This document shows positions 4,588 through 14,029 of a stretch of DNA of 14,384 nt, piece by piece (position 1 is the first letter of the stretch; each line of letters starts with the position of its first letter). Position numbers and translations under genes: made by a program. Under the pieces are notes generated by a model. It searched no databases. It was not told the DNA's origin and saw only the letters and a list, made by a program, of their open reading frames with translations. Origin of the DNA: Aestuariibaculum sp. (lineage in GTDB: Bacteria; Bacteroidota; Bacteroidia; Flavobacteriales; Flavobacteriaceae). The DNA is taken from contig JBKEDH010000167.1 of the NCBI GenBank assembly GCA_047975295.1, positions 1 through 14,384 on the forward strand, written 5' to 3'.

Positions 4588-5598
4588 TCATTCCTGTTTC
4601 CGTTCATAATTCCTAACCGCCAACTTTTGTTTAAACAAAATACGGTTTCGCAATTTTCTGGGCTTTAAAACCTCCAGACTTTCACCAAATCCGAGAATTA
4701 AACGCTCCAATTCGTAATTAATCTGAACAAAAATATTAAAAACAACGCCATCCTCACGGGTTTCTATAATACGCTGCGACCAATGGAAAGGCTTTGTAAT
4801 AATATAAGGTGCATTTTTTTTATTGACCCAAAATTGTATGCATTCGGCTTTGATGTTCGATACGGTTACGCCTACTACATCGCTATAAAAATCGTCGCCG
4901 TTAACGGCCATATCTATATATTTAAGTTTTTTGTTCTGTTTTATACCAATTATCCGGTCTAAAGCAAGTGTTATAAACTTTTCATTTTGGTAGGCCAGTA
5001 AAAACCAACGGTTATTAAACTCTTTTAATAATTGCGGGTGTACTTCTATAATTTTAGGTACTCTTGCCGAAAACGACTGATAATTAACATTAATAACAGT
5101 TTTATCTTGAATGGTTTTATAAATAACATCAATAAAGTTTAGCCCCTTTAATTGTTCGTTCTTATCTAAATGAATAATGGCCCGTTTATTGACCTGAGAT
5201 GCGTAAACCGAATCTTCCAGACGCTGTAAAACACCGTCCATCTCCTTAAAAAGCGAAAAATCCTTAAATTGTTTTAATACTTGGATGGCATTGTTCATTA
5301 TTTCAACGTCTTTATCGGTTACGGGAATGTTTACAATACTGTAATTTTCGTCTTCATATTTATAATACTTCCTATTGTAAACCACAATAGGCGCATTATA
5401 ACCAAGTTTATCACTACGCATTATTTGTATATCCAATTGTACGGTACGCTTGCTAACATTAACATCTTTACCTTCGTATTCGTAAAGAGCGTCCGATACG
5501 GCTTCTATTAAATCGTCTAATGTCCAGCTTCTAAAATGGTTTTGAAGACATTTATCTATGGTTTTATATCTAATAAGAGCGTTTTTATTAACGGCCAT
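4588..5598 (-). CDS. WYL-domain transcriptional regulator (N-terminal wHTH, central WYL, C-terminal WCX-like; BrxR/CapW/PafBC-like architecture)
   Basis: 336 aa. N-terminal HTH-like SKRTVQLDIQIM. Central segment INVNYQSFSARVPKIIEVHPQLLKEFNNRWFLLAYQNEKFITLALDRI matches the WYL domain consensus (Y.S....R.V.P..L......WYL.AY........F.LDRI). The length is typical for this family. The gene is divergent from the ncRNA/SPFH/RtcB cluster. Confidence 0.8.
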   Translation of the reverse strand: MAVNKNALIRYKTIDKCLQNHFRSWTLDDLIEAVSDALYEYEGKDVNVSKRTVQLDIQIMRSDKLGYNAPIVVYNRKYYKYEDENYSIVNIPVTDKDVEIMNNAIQVLKQFKDFSLFKEMDGVLQRLEDSVYASQVNKRAIIHLDKNEQLKGLNFIDVIYKTIQDKTVINVNYQSFSARVPKIIEVHPQLLKEFNNRWFLLAYQNEKFITLALDRIIGIKQNKKLKYIDMAVNGDDFYSDVVGVTVSNIKAECIQFWVNKKNAPYIITKPFHWSQRIIETREDGVVFNIFVQINYELERLILGFGESLEVLKPRKLRNRILFKQKLAVRNYERKQE

Positions 5599-5660
5599 AA
5601 TGTTACTGTTCTAATTCATTTTTACTAAAATATAAGAAATTTTTCAAAAAAAAATTAAAC

Positions 5661-5679
5661 TACGCAAAAACATTGCGTA
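5661..5679. promoter_or_regulatory. Perfect palindrome TACGCAA-N5-TTGCGTA, candidate operator (possibly for the adjacent WYL regulator)
   Basis: 7-bp arms are exact reverse complements with a 5-nt spacer. It lies 63 bp upstream of the WYL gene start codon and overlaps the candidate -33 element of a plus-strand promoter. Confidence 0.4.
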
Positions 5680-5700
5680 ATTACATGAAAATATTTGCAA
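5671..5700 (+). promoter_or_regulatory. Candidate Bacteroidetes-type sigma-A promoter for the plus-strand tRNA-like/Y-RNA-like transcript
   Basis: TTG at 5673-5675 and TATTTG at 5692-5697 approximate TAnnTTTG. The spacing is shorter than the ~19-nt consensus. A transcription start near 5704 is implied. This is a weak motif-only call. Confidence 0.25.
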
Positions 5701-5742
5701 TGTAATAATAAAGAAGTCTTCTTTTTAGACTTTGTAAGTAGT

Positions 5743-5772
5743 GCTCCACCAGACACAGGAAGCTGGTGGAGC
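5743..5772 (+). other. Strong hairpin: 10-bp perfect stem GCTCCACCAG/CTGGTGGAGC with 10-nt loop ACACAGGAAG
   Basis: Direct reverse-complement reading. It sits between the candidate promoter and the first tRNA-like module. It follows a second palindrome, AAAGAAG-T-CTTCTTT, at 5710-5724. Confidence 0.5.
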
Positions 5773-5798
5773 TTAACAAACGCTCTTAAATATATAAT

Positions 5799-5870
5799 CT
5801 GGAAAAATAACAATGGCTGTTTGCTCGCTTTGGAAGCGGGAGGTTGCAGGTTCGAATCCTGCTTTCCAGA
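5799..5870 (+). tRNA. tRNA-like, canonical order, Pro(UGG)-like anticodon loop; atypical D-arm (possible pseudo-tRNA or part of a Y-RNA-like transcript)
   Basis: Cloverleaf reads CTGGAAA/TTTCCAG (perfect 7-bp acceptor, C1-G72 as in bacterial tRNA-Pro), AA, weak D-arm TAAC-AATGGCT-GTTT, G, anticodon stem CTCGC/GCGGG, loop TTTGGAA (U33, anticodon TGG, A37), variable AGGTT, T-arm GCAGG-TTCGAAT-CCTGC, discriminator A. No CCA is encoded. A8 and the 3-bp A/T D-stem are non-canonical. Confidence 0.45.
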
Positions 5871-6017
5871 CAAATGCCTGTAATAAAAAATATCAAGCAA
5901 GTCCTGTTGGGTGTTTCGGTATAGCACTATTGTATAAAACCTTGCCGATGGGTATTAGGTATTTATATGCAACTTGACTTGAAGGTTTCGAATTGTTTAT
6001 CCAAAAAACAATCACCA

Positions 6018-6087
6018 TCTATCTGTCACGGGTTCGAATCCCGTTCCCAACAAAAGTTGGGATAGCTCAGTTTGGTAGAGCAATAGA
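6018..6087 (+). ncRNA. Circularly permuted tRNA-like module (YrlA-type Y RNA-like tRNA mimic)
   Basis: Order is TCTAT (anticodon-stem 3' strand), CTGTC (variable), ACGGG-TTCGAAT-CCCGT (T-arm), TCCCAAC (acceptor 3' strand), AAAA loop, GTTGGGA (acceptor 5' strand), TA, GCTC-AGTTTGGTA-GAGC (D-arm), A, ATAGA (anticodon-stem 5' strand). All helices are perfect Watson-Crick. The element spacings equal those of a real tRNA but the order is permuted and the acceptor stem is loop-closed. Confidence 0.55.
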
Positions 6088-6096
6088 TTATCAATT

Positions 6097-6166
6097 GTAG
6101 GTTCGAATCCTACTCATGCAAAAACGTGATGGCGAAATTGGTAAACGCACTGTAACTGGGTTACAG
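6097..6166 (+). ncRNA. Second tRNA-like module in the same T-arm, stem-loop, D-arm order (degenerate)
   Basis: T-arm GTAGG-TTCGAAT-CCTAC (6097-6113), weak stem-loop region 6114-6131, class-II-like D-arm GCG-AAATTGGTAAA-CGC (6132-6148), A, then hairpin CTGTA(A)-ACTGGGT-TACAG (6150-6166). The acceptor strands do not pair, so this is not a canonical tRNA. Confidence 0.35.
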
Positions 6167-6172
6167 CTTGAA

Positions 6173-6195
6173 ATGGACTCAAAATCCATATTTTT
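6173..6195 (+). terminator. Rho-independent terminator-like hairpin ending the tRNA-like/Y-RNA-like region
   Basis: ATGGA-CTCAAAA-TCCAT stem-loop followed by ATTTTT. A second similar hairpin, ACAGTT-ATATTAA-AACTGT plus TTTTAT, lies at 6286-6310. Confidence 0.4.
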
Positions 6196-6512: not shown

Positions 6513-7613
6513 ATGAAACGAGTACGTATTAACACAGGAACAGTAGGATTAGTGTTTAAAAACGGTAACTACAAACGTACACTTACCAATGGCACTTATT
6601 GGGTAGGATTTGGCAAACACGTCGAAAAATATGCTTTAAACCACGAATTTTATGCCCCAAAACCATTGGAAATATTAATGGAAGATAGTACACTAACAAA
6701 TATGCTACACGTGGTCGATGTTTTAGATAATGAAATTGTACTAGTTTACGAAAACAATAATTTTAAACGAGTGTTGGGAGCAGGCCGATACACCTTTTGG
6801 AATACCTTAATCGAATATAAATTCGTTACGGTCAATTTAAGTAAAATCGATATTACCGAAAGCATCGATAAAACTGTATTAAGCCATGCCCAGTTATTAC
6901 CTTATGTGCGTGTTTTTGAAATTGCTGCTTACGAAAAAGCCATTTTAATGGTCGATGATACATATATAAAAACATTGAATCACGGTACATACCGGTTTTG
7001 GAAAAACCAGCAAACCATAAAAATAGCAAAAGCCGATTTACGCCAATTACAATTAGAAATAGCAGGGCAAGAGCTACTTACAAAAGACAAAGCAACCATT
7101 CGAATCAATTTTTATGCACAGTATAAAATAACCGATATAGAAACCGCCTTAATGCAAAATAAAGATTACGAAAAACAACTTTATATAACTTTGCAATTGG
7201 CATTAAGGGCCTATGTTGGCACCTATACACTCGATGAGTTGTTAGAACAAAAAGACAACGTAGCAAAAGTCGTTTTGAACAATGTAAAAGCACAAGCCAA
7301 CAAATTAGGCGTTAACGTATTGCACACAGGTATGCGTGACATAATTTTACCGGGCGACATGAAAGATATTATGAATCAAGTACTAATCGCACAGAAAAAA
7401 GCACAGGCCAATGTTATTACAAGGCGCGAAGAAACAGCTTCTACACGAAGTCTGTTAAACACCGCCAAATTAATGGAAGACAACACCATGTTGTTCAAAT
7501 TAAAGGAAATGGAATACGTCGAAAAAATAGCCGATAAAATTGGAAAAATTACAGTGGCTGGAAACGGAAACGTTATTGAGCAATTAAAAGATATTTTTTC
7601 GGTTAACAAATAA
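6513..7613 (+). CDS. SPFH/band-7 (slipin/stomatin-like) domain protein, no predicted TM helix
   Basis: 366 aa. The C-terminal half (QELLTKDKATIRINFYAQYKITDIETAL...GVNVLHTGMRDIILPGDMKDIMNQVLIAQKKAQANVITRREETA) matches the SPFH core and the following coiled coil. The N-terminal half carries three G-x-Y-x-FW repeats ~65 aa apart. There is no N-terminal hydrophobic anchor. Confidence 0.7.
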   Translation: MKRVRINTGTVGLVFKNGNYKRTLTNGTYWVGFGKHVEKYALNHEFYAPKPLEILMEDSTLTNMLHVVDVLDNEIVLVYENNNFKRVLGAGRYTFWNTLIEYKFVTVNLSKIDITESIDKTVLSHAQLLPYVRVFEIAAYEKAILMVDDTYIKTLNHGTYRFWKNQQTIKIAKADLRQLQLEIAGQELLTKDKATIRINFYAQYKITDIETALMQNKDYEKQLYITLQLALRAYVGTYTLDELLEQKDNVAKVVLNNVKAQANKLGVNVLHTGMRDIILPGDMKDIMNQVLIAQKKAQANVITRREETASTRSLLNTAKLMEDNTMLFKLKEMEYVEKIADKIGKITVAGNGNVIEQLKDIFSVNK

Positions 7614-7620
7614 TTTTTTT

Positions 7621-7710
7621 GGGCGTAACCCCAAAACGGTAACCAATAGTTGGTTTCATAACAAAGTCAAGGCTAACCGTTTCGGGGTCGCGCTTTCCGC
7701 GCTACACGGT
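7621..7710 (+). other. GC-rich structured intergenic element (long imperfect hairpin plus CGCG-CTTTC-CGCG hairpin) between the SPFH and rtcB genes
   Basis: CCCCAAAACGGT (7629-7640) pairs with ACCGTTTCGGGG (7676-7687), and flanking bases extend the helix. There is an inner AACCAA-TAG-TTGGTT hairpin and a CGCG-CTTTC-CGCG hairpin at 7689-7701. Local GC is far above the window average. Confidence 0.35.
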
Positions 7711-7744: not shown

Positions 7745-9136
<1,392 letters not shown>

Positions 9137-9256: not shown

Positions 9257-9276
9257 AAAAACCTATCAGGTTTTTT
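9257..9276. terminator. Bidirectional rho-independent terminator between convergent rtcB and ppc
   Basis: AAAAACCT-ATC-AGGTTTTTT is a hairpin with an A-tract upstream and a T-tract downstream. It is followed by a second T-run, CAGGTTTGTTTTTTTT. Confidence 0.5.
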
Positions 9277-9338: not shown

Positions 9339-11957
9339 TTAAGCCGAATTTCTACTGGCATTAATATTTCCAAACAATGAACGTGTTACTATTTTTTCGT
9401 AAACTTTTAGTTTTTCCTCGTCAATGGTATCCATTTTTTCCATATCCTGTATTTTCTTTAAGGCGTATTGTTGGATGGTTAACAGAGGTAACACAATAGA
9501 TTCCCTAACCTCAATCGATGCTTTTCCGGAAGGTTCGTTTTCCATAAGTTCGTTATAACCGGTAAGTTTTAACAACAAGCGTTTGGTTGTGGCATATTCG
9601 GTATAGATAATATCCCAAAATGCACCAAATTCCTCGTCTTGCGACATATATTTGGTTAAATCGAAAAACGATTTGGTAAGCGACATCATACTATTTTCCA
9701 GTAGGGTTTTAAAAAATTTCGAATTGTTGTAAAGTTCTTGTACTTTGTGGAATTCGTTATTGTCTTCATACTTTTTTAGGGCAGTACCCACACCAAAAAA
9801 TCCGGGAACATTTTGTTTTAACTGGCTCCAAGACCCAACAAATGGAATAGCTCTTAAATCGGAAAACACCAAATGATCGGACTTTGAGCGTTTTGAAGGA
9901 CGACTACCAATATTGGTTTTGGCGTAGTATTTTAAAGTACTCATACGCTCTAAGTAAGGTATAAATTTTTCGTGATTTTTAAATGTTCTATAAGCTTGGT
10001 AACTGGTTTCGGCCAAATCGGTCATGACCAAACGGTCTGGTTCCGACATTTTTAGACTGTCTTTTGCTAATCGGTTAAACATCCCCGAACTTATCAATTG
10101 TTCCAAATTGTATTGAGATGAATCCAGAGTACCGAAATTCGAGCTTATGGTTTGTCCCTGTATGGTAAGCTGTACTTCCTTATCCTCAATGGTTGGCCCT
10201 AACGACGAGTAAAACTGATGTGTTTTTCCGCCACCACGTGCCGGCGGTCCACCACGACCATCAAAAAATATAGCGGTAATATCGTATTTTCGGGACATTT
10301 CGGTTAGTTTTTCCTTGGCGGTATAAATACCCCAGTTGGCCATTAGGTAGCCACCGTCTTTTGTTCCATCCGAAAAGCCCAACATTATGGTTTGTTTCAT
10401 CCCTCTTGCTTTTAAATGTGCCATGTATTCGGGATTGGTGTACAGTTGCTCCATAACACTTGGTGCATTTTCCAAATCGGTAATGGTTTCAAAAAGCGGT
10501 ACGATATCAACCGTTAAATCATTTTTAAAAGCCACCATTTTAAGCATGGCAAACAATTGCATAACGTTTAATGCCGTTTGGTTGTTACTTATTACGTAGC
10601 GGTTGGCACCCCGTTCGCCATTGGTTGTTTGTATTTGTTTAATAACTTCGATGGTTTTTAGCGTATTGTAAACCATTTCGTCTTCAAAAGCAGTTAAATC
10701 TATATTTTCATCCGATACTTTTGAAAGTACTCCAACCTGTTCGGCCTCCGATAAATCGTGATAGTTTTTCGGTATGGTATTGGCACCCTGTTCTATTAAA
10801 TAATCTATAACATTGGTAAATACCGAATGGTGTATGCGGCTGTCCTGACGGATATCTAAAGTTGCAAAATGATAACCAAAAATATGCACTCGGTTAATCA
10901 AGCTGTTTATTTCGTTAACGTACAGCGACTGGTGTTTTTCTACAATAACATCCCTTATGTCCAAAAGTTCTTTAAGAAACTCGCGTGAGGTAATGGTTTC
11001 GTAACGGGTATTTAGATCTATACTAAAGTTGTACATAATGGTCTCCAACCGGATAATACGCTCTTCTACACCTTTAAAGGTAAGACGGCGACGTAATGTT
11101 TTTAAGTCGTTGTAATATTGCTTCAGTACGGTTTGTTTTAGTTTATTGGCTACCCTTAAAGTGGTGTCGGGTTTAACAAAAGGGTTGCCATCGCGATCGC
11201 CACCGGGCCAAAAACCAACATTAATAATTTCGTTATGCTTTTTACCATCGGCATAAATATTTTGCTGTATGTAATTGTAAATAGTACCAAACGAATGGTA
11301 AAATACATTTTCCAAGTACCAAATCAAGCTTTTGGCCTCGTCGTAAGGTGTTGGCTTTTCACGCTTAAAAAACGGCGTTTTACCCAATTGCCCAAAAAGA
11401 TTTTTTATTTCGGACAGGTTATTACTTTTAATCGCTTTGGTTAAATCGGTAATAATACCCAATACAGTACCTGGATAAAACTGTGTAGGGTGCGCCGTTA
11501 AAACAATACGCACCTTAAACTCTTCGAGATACTTTTTTAAATCCTCCATTTTATTACTCGATATGGCGGTTTCTTTTAAATTTCGTAGCGAGCCAATACC
11601 TTCCATGTTATTTACAACAGGGAAGGCTGAATCCTCTACGGCATCGAAAAGCACTACTTGGCGCTCGATATATTGGATAAAACGGAACAGTAAATTAATT
11701 TGGCTCTGCTCGTTGCGGCGGGCTTGATATTTTTTAAAAAAAGTATCGACAATGGTCGTAGGGTCGTCACCATTGGCAAAACCCTTTTTACAGGTTTCGT
11801 GAAACAAGGGCAATAACGCTCCTGTTTTGGTAATGGCATCGAATGGAAGCGTCATAAATATACTGTTGTATATTTGATATTTGGATAATACGTTTTGTTT
11901 AAATCGGGATAATTTTGGTTCTACTGACATACAATCGGTTCTGTTGAAATGAGCCAT
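9339..11957 (-). CDS. ppc: Phosphoenolpyruvate carboxylase
   Basis: 872 aa. PEPC signatures VLTAHPTQ, FHGRGG-like FFDGRGGPPARGGG, and C-terminal region TIMLGFSDGTKDGG (the GYSDSxKDxG equivalent). The size fits Bacteroidetes-type PEPC. An alternative start 9 codons downstream (MSVEPK) is possible. Confidence 0.9.
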   Translation of the reverse strand: MAHFNRTDCMSVEPKLSRFKQNVLSKYQIYNSIFMTLPFDAITKTGALLPLFHETCKKGFANGDDPTTIVDTFFKKYQARRNEQSQINLLFRFIQYIERQVVLFDAVEDSAFPVVNNMEGIGSLRNLKETAISSNKMEDLKKYLEEFKVRIVLTAHPTQFYPGTVLGIITDLTKAIKSNNLSEIKNLFGQLGKTPFFKREKPTPYDEAKSLIWYLENVFYHSFGTIYNYIQQNIYADGKKHNEIINVGFWPGGDRDGNPFVKPDTTLRVANKLKQTVLKQYYNDLKTLRRRLTFKGVEERIIRLETIMYNFSIDLNTRYETITSREFLKELLDIRDVIVEKHQSLYVNEINSLINRVHIFGYHFATLDIRQDSRIHHSVFTNVIDYLIEQGANTIPKNYHDLSEAEQVGVLSKVSDENIDLTAFEDEMVYNTLKTIEVIKQIQTTNGERGANRYVISNNQTALNVMQLFAMLKMVAFKNDLTVDIVPLFETITDLENAPSVMEQLYTNPEYMAHLKARGMKQTIMLGFSDGTKDGGYLMANWGIYTAKEKLTEMSRKYDITAIFFDGRGGPPARGGGKTHQFYSSLGPTIEDKEVQLTIQGQTISSNFGTLDSSQYNLEQLISSGMFNRLAKDSLKMSEPDRLVMTDLAETSYQAYRTFKNHEKFIPYLERMSTLKYYAKTNIGSRPSKRSKSDHLVFSDLRAIPFVGSWSQLKQNVPGFFGVGTALKKYEDNNEFHKVQELYNNSKFFKTLLENSMMSLTKSFFDLTKYMSQDEEFGAFWDIIYTEYATTKRLLLKLTGYNELMENEPSGKASIEVRESIVLPLLTIQQYALKKIQDMEKMDTIDEEKLKVYEKIVTRSLFGNINASRNSA

Positions 11958-12193: not shown

Positions 12194-14029
12194 ATGACAA
12201 ACAATAAGCATTCTTTTCATATTCCTGTTATGGGCATTGGGTTTACTATCGATTCACCATTAAAAGTGGCCCAATACGGTATCGATTCGGTAATTTCGTT
12301 GGTCGATGATATTTTAATCGAGAAATTACGAAAAATGTACAGTGAAAAACTAGAAATACCTTATCAGGAAATTACCAATAAAGTAGATGATTTTAGGGCA
12401 AAACGCATTACATCCTATCTCAATTTAATAAACGATATAGTTGATAAAAAGTTTGAAGCCTTAAAAAAAGCTGCTTTAGAAAAGGGTGATGAGTTTAAGA
12501 CTTATCTCGATATGTTACCCTCTACCGCAACACTTGGTGCCGAATTTAAGAAACTGACCGAAACAGGCGTATCGGTATCTGAAATTAAAATATGGCTTAA
12601 CAAAAACCTGGTTAAAGGCAGTATCGATGTTAACATTATGACCAAGGTTGATAAAGACAATTACGTTAAAAAACAAGCTTTACCTTCTAAATACAACGAT
12701 GCCCATGCTGCTTTTCGCGGTTTTGCTAATAGCGATTTATGTAGTTCGGTGGTTTTATCGGCAGGAATGAATCCCAGATTATACGCCTATATGAGCGAAT
12801 TTGACGATTTCTATCCGAATGAAAAAGGCACTTTTAAAAAGAAAATTATTTTAAAGGTAAGCGATTACCGATCGGCTTTAATACAAGGAAAATTCTTAGC
12901 TAAAAAAGGCCTTTGGGTGTCGGAATACCGCATAGAATCAGGTCTAAATTGTGGCGGCCATGCTTTTGCCACCGATGGTTTTTTATTAGGCCCCGTTTTA
13001 GAAGAGTTTAAGGCCAATAGGGAAACTTTAAGAACCTCGATAGAGCAGCTTCTAATTCAAGAATTAAAAAGCCAAAACAAAGTACTTCCAAAAACAAGTC
13101 TGAACTTTAAAATATCGGCACAGGGTGGTGTTGGTACCCACCAAGAACATGAATTTTTATTAGACCGATACCAGTTGGATTCCATCGGATGGGGGTCACC
13201 GTTTTTATTGGTTCCCGAAGCAACCACAGTCGATAGTAAAACCATGGAGCAGTTGGCCGCTGCCAAAGAAAACGATTTGTATTTAAGCGATATTTCGCCA
13301 CTTGGTATTCCTTTTAACAACTTAAGGAACAATACAAAAGACTTGGAAAAAGATGCTTTAATAAAAAAAGGACGACCAGGAAGCTCATGTCCTAAAAAGT
13401 TTGTTGCCCTTAATAAAGACTATAAGGAAACGGGTATGTGCACTGCCTCGAGAGAATATCAACATATAAAAATTAAAGAGTTAGAAGCACAAAACTTACC
13501 GGAAGACCAATACCAAACCAAATTCAACAAAATAGTTGAAAAATCGTGTACTTGTGTCGGTTTAGGTACATCGGCATTATTGGCGTACAATCTCGATACC
13601 AAAACCGAAGGTCCGGGTGTTTCCATTTGTCCGGGTCCCAATATGGCCTATTATTCTAAAATTATGAGTCTAAAAAACATAACCGACCATATTTATGGTA
13701 GAGGTAATGTTATTACACGTACCGATAGGCCCAATATGTTTGTAAAGGAATTGTTTATTTATATCGATTACTTAAAAAATAAGTTAGAGGAAGCCAAAAA
13801 CGAAATGACCAAAAAAGAAGAAAAATACCTGCTTACGTTTAGTGATAACCTGCAAACGGGTATTGGTTATTATAAAAGTTTATTTGTGCAATTACAAAAC
13901 AATATCCAAGATATAAAATTTGAAATTATCGAAGCTTTTAATCGTGGTGAAAATACCTTGAATACCTTACATTCCGAAATAGAAAATACCATAACAACGT
14001 TAAAAAACAACTCGGTTTCAACAGCATAA
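12194..14029 (+). CDS. Hypothetical protein (611 aa) with weak FMN-dependent TIM-barrel (nitronate monooxygenase/FabK-like) motif resemblance and C-terminal coiled-coil tail
   Basis: This is a long uninterrupted ORF. The N-terminal IPVMGIGFT and central SAQGGVGT...GWGSPFLLVPEA loosely resemble PIIQxxM and GGIGTG...GTRFLxxEE of NMO/FabK-type enzymes. Also present: GLNCGGHAF, and GPGVSICPGPNMAY with a Cys loop. I do not confidently recognise the family. Confidence 0.55.
   Translation: MTNNKHSFHIPVMGIGFTIDSPLKVAQYGIDSVISLVDDILIEKLRKMYSEKLEIPYQEITNKVDDFRAKRITSYLNLINDIVDKKFEALKKAALEKGDEFKTYLDMLPSTATLGAEFKKLTETGVSVSEIKIWLNKNLVKGSIDVNIMTKVDKDNYVKKQALPSKYNDAHAAFRGFANSDLCSSVVLSAGMNPRLYAYMSEFDDFYPNEKGTFKKKIILKVSDYRSALIQGKFLAKKGLWVSEYRIESGLNCGGHAFATDGFLLGPVLEEFKANRETLRTSIEQLLIQELKSQNKVLPKTSLNFKISAQGGVGTHQEHEFLLDRYQLDSIGWGSPFLLVPEATTVDSKTMEQLAAAKENDLYLSDISPLGIPFNNLRNNTKDLEKDALIKKGRPGSSCPKKFVALNKDYKETGMCTASREYQHIKIKELEAQNLPEDQYQTKFNKIVEKSCTCVGLGTSALLAYNLDTKTEGPGVSICPGPNMAYYSKIMSLKNITDHIYGRGNVITRTDRPNMFVKELFIYIDYLKNKLEEAKNEMTKKEEKYLLTFSDNLQTGIGYYKSLFVQLQNNIQDIKFEIIEAFNRGENTLNTLHSEIENTITTLKNNSVSTA

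Follow-up and report, generated by a model that had tools for sequence, protein, structure and literature searches.

A conserved palindromic site between a WYL regulator gene and RNA-repair genes in Bacteroidota as a candidate operator

Two palindromes in a divergent control region

For bacteria that lack the RtcR/sigma-54 system, we know of no described mechanism by which damage to RNA is sensed and RNA repair is induced. The locus studied here, in which two perfect palindromes lie between a gene for a WYL-domain regulator and a cluster of RNA and RNA-repair genes, raises the question of whether either palindrome is an operator and, if so, for which regulator and which genes.

The window, that is, the whole stretch of DNA analysed, is a complete contig of 14,384 bp from a metagenome-assembled genome of Aestuariibaculum sp. 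(Flavobacteriaceae). Its minus strand carries the gene (4588-5598) for a 336-aa wHTH-WYL-WCX transcription regulator, the presumed binder of the first palindrome. On the plus strand, a tRNA-like gene, a YrlA-like module, T-arm-like modules, a Band-7 gene and an RtcB gene follow in this order 3' of the palindromes. The tRNA-like gene (5799-5870, plus strand) is the first RNA after the leader, resembles tRNA-Pro(UGG) and is of the 'band-7-associated tRNA' type, with an Rfam tRNA score of 51.9 bits. ARAGORN calls no tRNA anywhere in the window, and it identifies the orthologue of this gene in the nearest relative (locus L001) as tRNA-Pro(TGG). The YrlA-like (Y-RNA-like) tRNA-mimic module (6005-6115, plus strand) matches Rfam YrlA with 47.1 bits (E 3e-9), a score below the Rfam gathering score of 69, and is overlapped by an Rfam tRNA match of 33.9 bits. 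More modules with T-arm-like sequences lie between the YrlA-like module and the gene for the Band-7/SPFH protein (6513-7613, plus strand; Pfam Band_7, 6e-26), which has the same orientation and is followed by the RtcB RNA ligase gene (7763-9136, plus strand; Pfam RtcB, 6e-38).

Gene neighbourhoods for RNA repair that combine RtcB, Ro, Y RNA, Band-7 and tRNA-like RNAs have already been described. The Band-7/'b7a-tRNA'/RtcB arrangement is credited to Burroughs and Aravind 2016 in passages of bioRxiv 10.1101/312249, and the window shares with the neighbourhoods in those passages the order of tRNA-like RNA, YrlA-like RNA, Band-7 and RtcB. As quoted there, the earlier work covers the genes and the RNAs.

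The first palindrome, TACGCAA-AAACA-TTGCGTA (5661-5679), consists of two perfect 7-bp arms (5661-5667 and 5673-5679) around a 5-nt spacer. The arms are not extendable beyond 7 bp, and the distance from the start of the palindrome to the ATG of the WYL gene is 63 bp. The second palindrome, AAAGAAG-T-CTTCTTT (5710-5724), likewise has perfect 7-bp arms (5710-5716 and 5718-5724). Both had been reported as perfect in a sequence-only reading of this stretch, and their sequence and positions match that report exactly. Within the window, however, they are unremarkable: it holds 22 perfect inverted repeats whose arms are 7 or longer and whose spacers measure 0-8, compared with 19.3 +/- 4.9 in dinucleotide shuffles, and for the 132-bp control region (5599-5730) the chance of at least one such repeat is 0.36 and of at least two 0.15. 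From the window alone, neither palindrome stands above chance, and functional claims about them must therefore rest on cross-genome comparison.

Conservation of the first palindrome and its place in the promoter

The comparison covered 80 loci of different species, each with a gene for a relative of the WYL protein (56-83% identity), 843 kb in total. Due to the selection of these loci via the WYL gene, the co-occurrence of WYL gene and palindrome is biased among them, and the independent test is the metagenome scan alone. The pattern TACGCAA-N5-TTGCGTA occurs in the 843 kb 24 times exactly, 64 times with at most one mismatch and 95 times with at most two, as opposed to 0, 0.05 and 2.25 sites, respectively, in the shuffled 843 kb. 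Sites of this type are present in 73 of the 80 WYL-anchored loci, in keeping with the conservation in orthologous promoter regions that the sequence-only reading had expected of an operator. The loci cover Flavobacteriaceae, Weeksellaceae (Chryseobacterium, Elizabethkingia), Crocinitomix, Saprospiraceae, Flammeovirga and one Bacteroidales genome. Winogradskyella sp. PG-2 and Polaribacter reichenbachii are among the carriers of the orthologue. After the cross-genome comparison, only the first palindrome exceeds chance.

The consensus of this family, TRCGCAAAAWNATTGCGYA, is asymmetric and longer than the palindrome itself. More specifically, spacer positions 8, 9 and 12 are A in at least 94% of the sites, although they lie outside the search pattern. 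At the symmetric positions 2 and 18, the combinations A/C (37 sites), G/T (13 sites) and G/C (2 sites) are found, and these changes are not compensatory. The sequence is thus kept rather than the pairing, which points to base-specific recognition of two half-sites and not to a hairpin. Each locus holds one to three copies, always at promoters.

These features bear on an alternative to which we give next to no probability, namely that the first palindrome is a hairpin, such as a minus-strand intrinsic terminator or another RNA structure, or a dispersed repeat. A terminator scan does list 5682-5658 on the minus strand, followed by TAATTTTTTT. The match has just 3 G-C pairs, however, and its T-run is unconserved, being present only in the window and in L001. 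Furthermore, the arm sequences are conserved without compensatory change, the nearest upstream minus-strand gene (PEP carboxylase) ends at 9339, so that no minus-strand gene end lies within 3.7 kb upstream, and the palindrome is located upstream of the predicted transcription start. A minus-strand Rho-independent terminator at this position was rejected on these grounds, and the low copy number at promoters only speaks against a dispersed repeat.

With 95 sites against 2.25 expected, conservation at the level of sequence and tight linkage to WYL orthologues, the earlier proposal of an operator-type site is supported for the first palindrome. We regard the operator assignment, taken by itself, as highly probable, and the site most likely docks the neighbouring WYL regulator.

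The orientation of the palindrome is constant across sites, with a -7 box on the A-rich side of the spacer. Housekeeping promoters of Bacteroidota are of the type -33 TTTG / -7 TAnnTTTG. Their -7 element, of which TTTG is the invariant end, reads T-12 A-11 T-8 T-7 T-6 G-5 (PMC6847099; PMC9723704); in Flavobacterium promoters, T-12/A-11 are nearly invariant, the start lies 5 nt past G-5 and the -33 element is weak (PMC6847099). In the window, the -7 promoter element AATATTTG is found at 5690-5697 on the plus strand, with TTTG at 5694-5697 and G5697 as position -5. The predicted transcription start (+1, a G), placed 5 nt past G-5, is position 5702 on the plus strand. A TTTG follows 3' of the palindrome at 88 of the 95 sites, after a gap of 13 nt at 80 of them and of 14 nt at 8, the window being among the latter. 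When these 88 sites are aligned, 87 have a purine at +1, which supports the start-site assignment, with the qualification that the 88 promoters are phylogenetically related and that such counts overstate their independence.

On this numbering, the first palindrome spans -41 to -23 of the predicted plus-strand promoter, with its centre at about -32, which agrees with the earlier statement that it overlaps the -33 region. All 88 promoters have the TTTG, T-12 and A-11 occur together in just 2 of the 88, and the commonest -7 boxes are TTACTTTG (31 sites) and AATATTTG (20 sites). No -33 element is found at its usual place in these promoters. The non-canonical -7 boxes are consistent with factor-dependent promoters, and these may not be promoters of the standard housekeeping type.

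The site also faces the regulator gene. In about 30 loci, the WYL ATG is directly divergent at 27-42 nt from the palindrome, and in most divergent loci a TAnnTTTY box starts 15 nt from the palindrome on the WYL side; several WYL genes with such a box would be leaderless. The regulator side in the window is 22 nt longer than in those roughly 30 loci. Its candidate -7-like box, TTTTTTTG (5645-5652, minus strand), is uncertain, with TATATTTT at 5627-5634 as an alternative. One site probably serves two back-to-back promoters, with its centre at about -31/-32 of the target promoter and at about -37 of the promoter of the regulator gene. Across loci the site is probably common to both promoters, in agreement with its earlier placement in a control region shared with the divergent WYL gene. 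Where genes intervene between WYL and RtcB, the palindrome remains at the promoter of RtcB, the divergent target; the site belongs primarily to the target promoter.

The predicted leader and the second palindrome

In the predicted transcript, the second palindrome occupies +9 to +23. None of the 80 loci has such a palindrome at the homologous position, and it is missing in 14 of 15 other leaders; the remaining one, that of L001, has a 6-bp AAAAAG-T-CTTTTT. As an RNA hairpin, the second palindrome reaches -0.9 kcal/mol, with a pair probability of at most 0.02.

The same stretch is overlapped by a leader hairpin, H1, in which 5713-5719 (GAAGTCT) pair with 5727-5733 (AGACTTT) across a 7-nt loop on the plus strand. 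In the window, H1 is predicted at -5.9 kcal/mol with pair probabilities of 0.71-0.95. A hairpin at this position is found in about 20 leaders, with covarying arms whose sequence differs between species, such as AAGTCT/AGACTT, GAAGCC/GGCTTC, GGCGC/GCGC and AAAGGCA/TGCCTTT. The left arm of the second palindrome coincides with the A/G-rich, conserved beginning of the leader, whereas the right arm falls in the T-rich variable loop of H1.

As far as sequence can tell, the second palindrome is a chance palindrome inside the predicted leader and not an operator. The proposal of a second operator in the control region did not stand: the element lies within the predicted transcript, it is absent from the homologous position in orthologous promoters, and its arms are explained by the leader and the H1 loop. 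One might still read it as a lineage-specific second operator, or as an RNA structure that competes with H1, since it is perfect in the window and L001 has a palindrome in its place with both arms changed. We consider this very improbable in view of its absence from the other 14 leaders and the 80 loci, the low complexity of both arms (A/G-rich leader, then T-rich loop) and a predicted hairpin far weaker than H1.

A second leader hairpin, H2, lies further downstream on the plus strand, where 5743-5752 (GCTCCACCAG) pair with 5763-5772 (CTGGTGGAGC) to form 10 bp around a 10-nt loop. In the RNAalifold consensus of 21 sequences, compensatory changes occur in 8 of the 10 pairs and 1 of 210 cells is unpaired. 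A covariance model of the leader, R1, identifies 26 copies in the window and the 80 loci, all directly behind promoters of the palindrome-1 type, including two loci whose palindrome has three mismatches. No Rfam family matches the leader. The H2 loop was also considered as a mimic of the AACAAGG region of 16S rRNA; although the loop is AACAAGGAG in some leaders, conservation is limited to GGA(G/A), and the idea was set aside.

RNA-repair genes behind the site and the candidate regulator

The gene most commonly found first downstream of the palindrome-1 site is RtcB (52 of 96 sites). RlaP (PF10127, 'RNA repair pathway DNA polymerase beta family') holds this place at 10 sites, Ro/TROVE at 7, a T4-type RNA ligase at 2, DUF6331 at 2 and a PrfH-like RF-1 protein at 1, and at several other sites Y-RNA-like or tRNA-like RNAs lie immediately downstream.

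The independent test consisted of metagenome contigs scanned by the DNA motif alone, which yielded 121 sites. A TTTG box accompanies 74 of them; a WYL orthologue is present in the fetched stretch at 41 of these 74, and a repair gene downstream at 45. The other 47 sites, without the box, lie in more G+C-rich DNA, with a WYL gene at 1 and a repair gene at none. A WYL or a repair gene is present at 29 of the 33 sites with the box whose flanks reach 1.5 kb or more downstream and 1.2 kb or more upstream. Of 35 matches on viral contigs, 33 are without the -7 box; these group into a small number of families, each nearly uniform in sequence, and are accompanied by neither WYL nor repair genes. They were rejected as coincidental. 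Several box-less metagenome matches share the flanks of these viral families and are accounted for by them. The combination of box and palindrome is specific to the RNA-repair gene set across the WYL loci and the metagenome and viral contigs scanned. The idea of a regulon, raised in the sequence-only reading, thereby found support, with the difference that the candidate regulon is one of RNA repair, as indicated by the 95 sites and the agreeing metagenome scan.

The same scan provides an argument for a different reading, in which WYL is a mere neighbour and the first palindrome serves either as a promoter element or as the target of some unlinked factor, such as a global regulator or an alternative sigma factor: about a third of the full-flank metagenome sites with the box have no WYL gene within 2.5 kb. 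We find this reading improbable. The two equally conserved half-sites suggest a dimeric DNA-binding protein and not a sigma factor, the TTTG at -7 is of the housekeeping sigma type, and no sigma-54 promoter is present. Moreover, WYL is directly divergent in the roughly 30 loci described above, it is the sole regulator that recurs next to the site in the loci viewed, and the motif resembles the operator of the WYL protein DriD.

The regulator of the window matches the Pfam models WYL (7.7e-8) and WCX (8.5e-10). No Pfam HTH model matches it; in the AlphaFold2 model, residues 1-90 form a helix-helix-helix-strand-strand arrangement with a pLDDT of about 80, within a model that is poor overall (pLDDT 61, pTM 0.40). 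A single-sequence search of solved structures with the regulator gave nothing useful, while a profile search against the PDB matched DriD, BrxR, CapW and PafC. Foldseek with the full-length, low-confidence model ranked DriD (3e-10) and PafBC (1e-9; PDB 9fnd) first, followed by CapW and BrxR. No NCBIfam family covers the regulator, and PADLOC matches it to generic CRISPR-associated WYL models only.

That WYL regulators act on palindromic operators in their own promoters is established for DriD, BrxR, CapW and PafBC, and we compared the window with each of these systems. DriD of Caulobacter crescentus, a wHTH-WYL-WCX activator of an SOS-independent DNA-damage response, has the same architecture and a similar length and is the best structural match, although its sequence identity to the regulator of the window is only about 15%. 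Its experimentally defined operator, ATACGACCGTTTCTGTCGCA, is a 20-bp palindrome that shares the outer TACG...CGCA and a 19-bp span with TACGCAA-N5-TTGCG(T/C)A, and DriD also has a site in its own promoter. The match in outer bases and length bears out the earlier remark that the first palindrome is of a size typical for a dimeric operator. The two sites differ in position, as that of DriD ends at -36, just upstream of a normal -35, whereas that of the window covers -41 to -23. They also differ in what they serve: DriD responds to ssDNA and controls a DNA-repair regulon, while the genes on the window side would form an RNA-repair regulon.

PafBC of mycobacteria and actinobacteria, whose motif (RecA-NDp) is not a clear dyad, is a WYL activator that works by 'sigma adaptation'. 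According to passages of PMC9186387, PafBC promoters are without a functional -35, and the site of the regulator takes that place next to the downstream element. The site in the window likewise occupies the -33 position, at a fixed distance from the -7 box. PafBC differs from the window in being a heterodimer or a fusion, in its role in the DNA-damage response, and in belonging to another phylum with another sigma factor. BrxR and CapW are wHTH-WYL-WCX dimers that bind inverted repeats in their own promoters (PMC9122601); they are shorter, match more weakly and are repressors of BREX and CBASS defence islands. With a neighbouring regulator gene, a 19-bp dyad in the own and divergent promoter and a conserved, coherent gene set, the first palindrome has the features by which a wHTH-WYL-WCX operator would be predicted.

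From this evidence, we think it moderately probable that the first palindrome is the operator of the adjacent wHTH-WYL-WCX regulator and forms, together with the -7 box, a composite regulator-dependent promoter with activating function. A dimer of the regulator would occupy both TRCGCAA half-sites, with the centre of the dyad at about -32 of the plus-strand promoter, from which the two-hairpin leader, the tRNA-like RNA, the Y-RNA-like RNAs, Band-7 and RtcB would be transcribed. The ligand-bound regulator would replace the -33 contact and make up for the weak -7 box, in the manner of PafBC and DriD at the promoters they control. As the palindrome lies upstream of the divergent WYL promoter too, autoregulation of the WYL gene is also probable. 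The same site before RtcB, RlaP, Ro, RNA ligase, PrfH and Y-RNA genes across Bacteroidota would make up an RNA-repair regulon. The signal may be one of nucleic-acid damage, plausibly damaged RNA, sensed by the WYL/WCX domains.

Activation is favoured over repression, and we infer it from the strict spacing and orientation across unrelated genes, the non-canonical -7 boxes and the missing -33 element at the usual place. The last of these proves little, since the -33 element is weak in Flavobacterium generally. Activation is also suggested by the closest matches of the protein, the activators DriD and PafBC, the latter of which acts at promoters that have no -35. In the opposite arrangement, apo-regulator on -41 to -23 would block RNA polymerase at both promoters until a damage-derived ligand releases it. 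The palindrome does overlap the core promoter, and -41 to -23 is also a classic place for a repressor; BrxR and CapW are WYL repressors whose binding sites are inverted repeats in the promoters of their own genes (PMC9122601). On the WYL side, 19 nt separate the TAnnTTTY box from the proximal TTG of the palindrome. This distance is the canonical -33 spacing in Bacteroides and Flavobacterium promoters, which suggests occlusion there. Nevertheless, in 88 of 95 promoters, which belong to unrelated genes, the palindrome keeps a strict distance and orientation to the -7 box, which would be unusual for simple occlusion, the -7 boxes almost never have T-12/A-11, so that the basal promoter looks weak, and the length and best structural matches of the protein are closer to DriD and PafBC than to BrxR and CapW. 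We judge repression less probable than activation, but a serious alternative.

The activating reading can be extended to the ligand. A ligand derived from damaged RNA is plausible by comparison with DriD, which responds to ssDNA, and with RtcR, which responds to damaged tRNA. RtcR is the sigma-54 activator of rsr-yrlBA-rtcBA in Salmonella and E. coli and is switched on by damaged tRNA (PMC7790460). It would be a functional analogue, as a nucleic-acid-sensing regulator encoded beside RtcB, Ro and Y-RNA genes; it differs in its CARF, AAA+ and HTH domains and its sigma-54 promoter, both of which the window lacks. Control of the sigma-54/RtcR type was accordingly rejected for the window, where neither such a promoter nor a CARF-AAA+-HTH gene is found among the nine large ORFs. 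In the surroundings of the RNA cluster and of RtcB, the plus strand has no match to the sigma-54 pattern (-24/-12, TGGCAC-N5-TTGCW), and in the window as a whole such matches are fewer than chance would give.

Our broadest proposal, which we offer tentatively as a possibility, is that the WYL regulator senses damaged RNA, such as cleaved ends of tRNA or rRNA, and that TRCGCAAAAWNATTGCGYA is the box of a phylum-wide, SOS-like 'RNA-damage regulon'. The loaded sensor would activate factor-dependent promoters by substituting for the contact that the housekeeping sigma factor of Bacteroidota makes at -33. Its protein-coding targets would include RtcB, T4-type ligases, RlaP, Ro, PrfH and Band-7, and its non-coding targets the two-hairpin leader, the b7a-tRNA-like RNA and Y-RNA-like RNAs. 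If this is true, the reach of WYL regulators extends from the control of DNA damage and phage defence to RNA repair. In the literature searched, which did not include Burroughs and Aravind 2016, no WYL regulator of RtcB, no such box or promoter geometry and no two-hairpin leader is described; the co-mentions of WYL and RtcB that were opened were entries in reference lists only.

The analysis yields an exact 19-bp box, a predicted start, a candidate regulator and a list of target genes and RNAs common to marine flavobacteria, Chryseobacterium, Saprospiraceae and other Bacteroidota. The box can serve as a simple finder for new RNA-repair genes and non-coding RNAs downstream of it.

Two further candidates for control by the box were rejected. 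In locus L003, an array of 18 tRNA genes near a box site has its own promoter, and the box site drives an RNA of about 190 nt that ends at a strong terminator. In the window, the 611-aa protein encoded at 12194-14029 was considered as a regulon member; it has no box upstream in the window, matches no Pfam family and is unrelated to the 612-aa protein behind the box in locus L005. A relative of the 611-aa protein comes after Band-7 in locus L036.

A two-hairpin leader behind the palindrome-1 promoter

The RNA predicted to be transcribed from the palindrome-1 promoter (palindrome at 5661-5679) begins with a 5' leader that spans 5702-5783 of the window, starts at the predicted transcription start and contains two hairpins, H1 (5713-5733) and H2 (5743-5772). 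Across the window and the 80 loci encoding WYL orthologues, we found 26 copies of this leader, each located immediately 3' of a palindrome-1 promoter and followed downstream by either RtcB or the RNA cluster. Eight of the ten base pairs in H2 show covariation, and GGA(G/A) is retained on the 3' side of its loop. No Rfam family matched the leader.

Palindrome 1 is itself adjoined by a third perfect inverted repeat with 7-bp arms (AATTTTT-CAAAA-AAAAATT, 5638-5656), which is missing from the list of the sequence-only reading. This repeat is A/T sequence of low complexity and overlaps one candidate for the WYL gene's -7 box.

RNA modules and probable terminators in the window

At 5799-5870 lies a tRNA-Pro(UGG)-like gene whose D-arm is defective and which scores 51.9 bits against Rfam. 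ARAGORN calls its orthologue in the nearest relative, L001, as tRNA-Pro, and does not call the window copy. Located 3' of this gene is a YrlA-like module (6005-6115), whose 47 bits fall short of the gathering score (69). The two elements correspond to RNAs predicted beside Band-7 and RtcB, namely the 'band-7-associated tRNA' and the Y-RNA-like RNAs. Between them, CAAGTCCTGTTG (5898-5909) pairs with CAACTTGACTTG (5970-5981) around an internal 2x2 mismatch, and the 5898-5981 segment is kept in L001 and in one further locus (L036). The pairing resembles a Y-RNA stem, yet a Ro gene is absent from the window. A further tRNA-like module at 6127-6190, partially conserved in L001, combines elements resembling a D-arm (GGCGAAATTGGTAAACGC) and a T-arm (GGACTCAAAATCC) with a 7-bp stem (CTGTAAC/GTTACAG).

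Two probable terminators were found around the protein-coding genes: a hairpin directly 3' of Band-7 (TTTTGGGCGTAACCCCAAAA, 7617-7636), which could separate Band-7 from RtcB, and a palindrome in the gap where the RtcB and PEP carboxylase genes converge (AAAAACCTATCAGGTTTTT, 9257-9275).

RNA genes and box sites in other contigs

Closely packed minus-strand arrays of tRNA genes with differing specificities, 18 genes in L003 (3-1746) and 8 in L033 (111-1092), lie within a few kb of the WYL gene. The palindrome-1 motif (box) was ruled out as the driver of the L003 array, which has its own promoter. In L003, a box site drives a minus-strand non-coding RNA of ~190 nt (about 2190-2450) with a strong terminator at its end (AAGCGTCCAACC...GGTTGGGCGTTTTTTT) and no match in Rfam. 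Flavo-1 RNA was matched with scores exceeding the gathering score in L001 (2798-2944) and L005 (769-845). In L001, the match is flanked by Band-7 and RtcB and lies on the other strand from these two genes.

In the viral contigs L223 (768-786) and L225, a tyrosine integrase gene is preceded at a distance of 575 nt by the box and a proper -7 element, an arrangement that suggests a prophage integrated beside a box-driven RNA gene. Four metagenome contigs (L088, L092, L130 and L134) likewise carry the box with a proper -7 element, and the sequence that follows (GTAGGGTTATAATTTTGCACCCAGAAAGAG) is identical in all four. Near these sites, which may represent additional regulon members, none of the searched-for repair genes was found.

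Genes upstream of WYL

In five loci (L006, L013, L027, L028 and L075), a gene for a ~205-aa protein lies immediately upstream of WYL on the same strand. Its HNLxH...FYHD motifs, judged by eye, appear HD-phosphohydrolase-like. In Chryseobacterium (L043-L079), a ~110-aa protein takes its place upstream of WYL, and both kinds of gene would share the divergent box.
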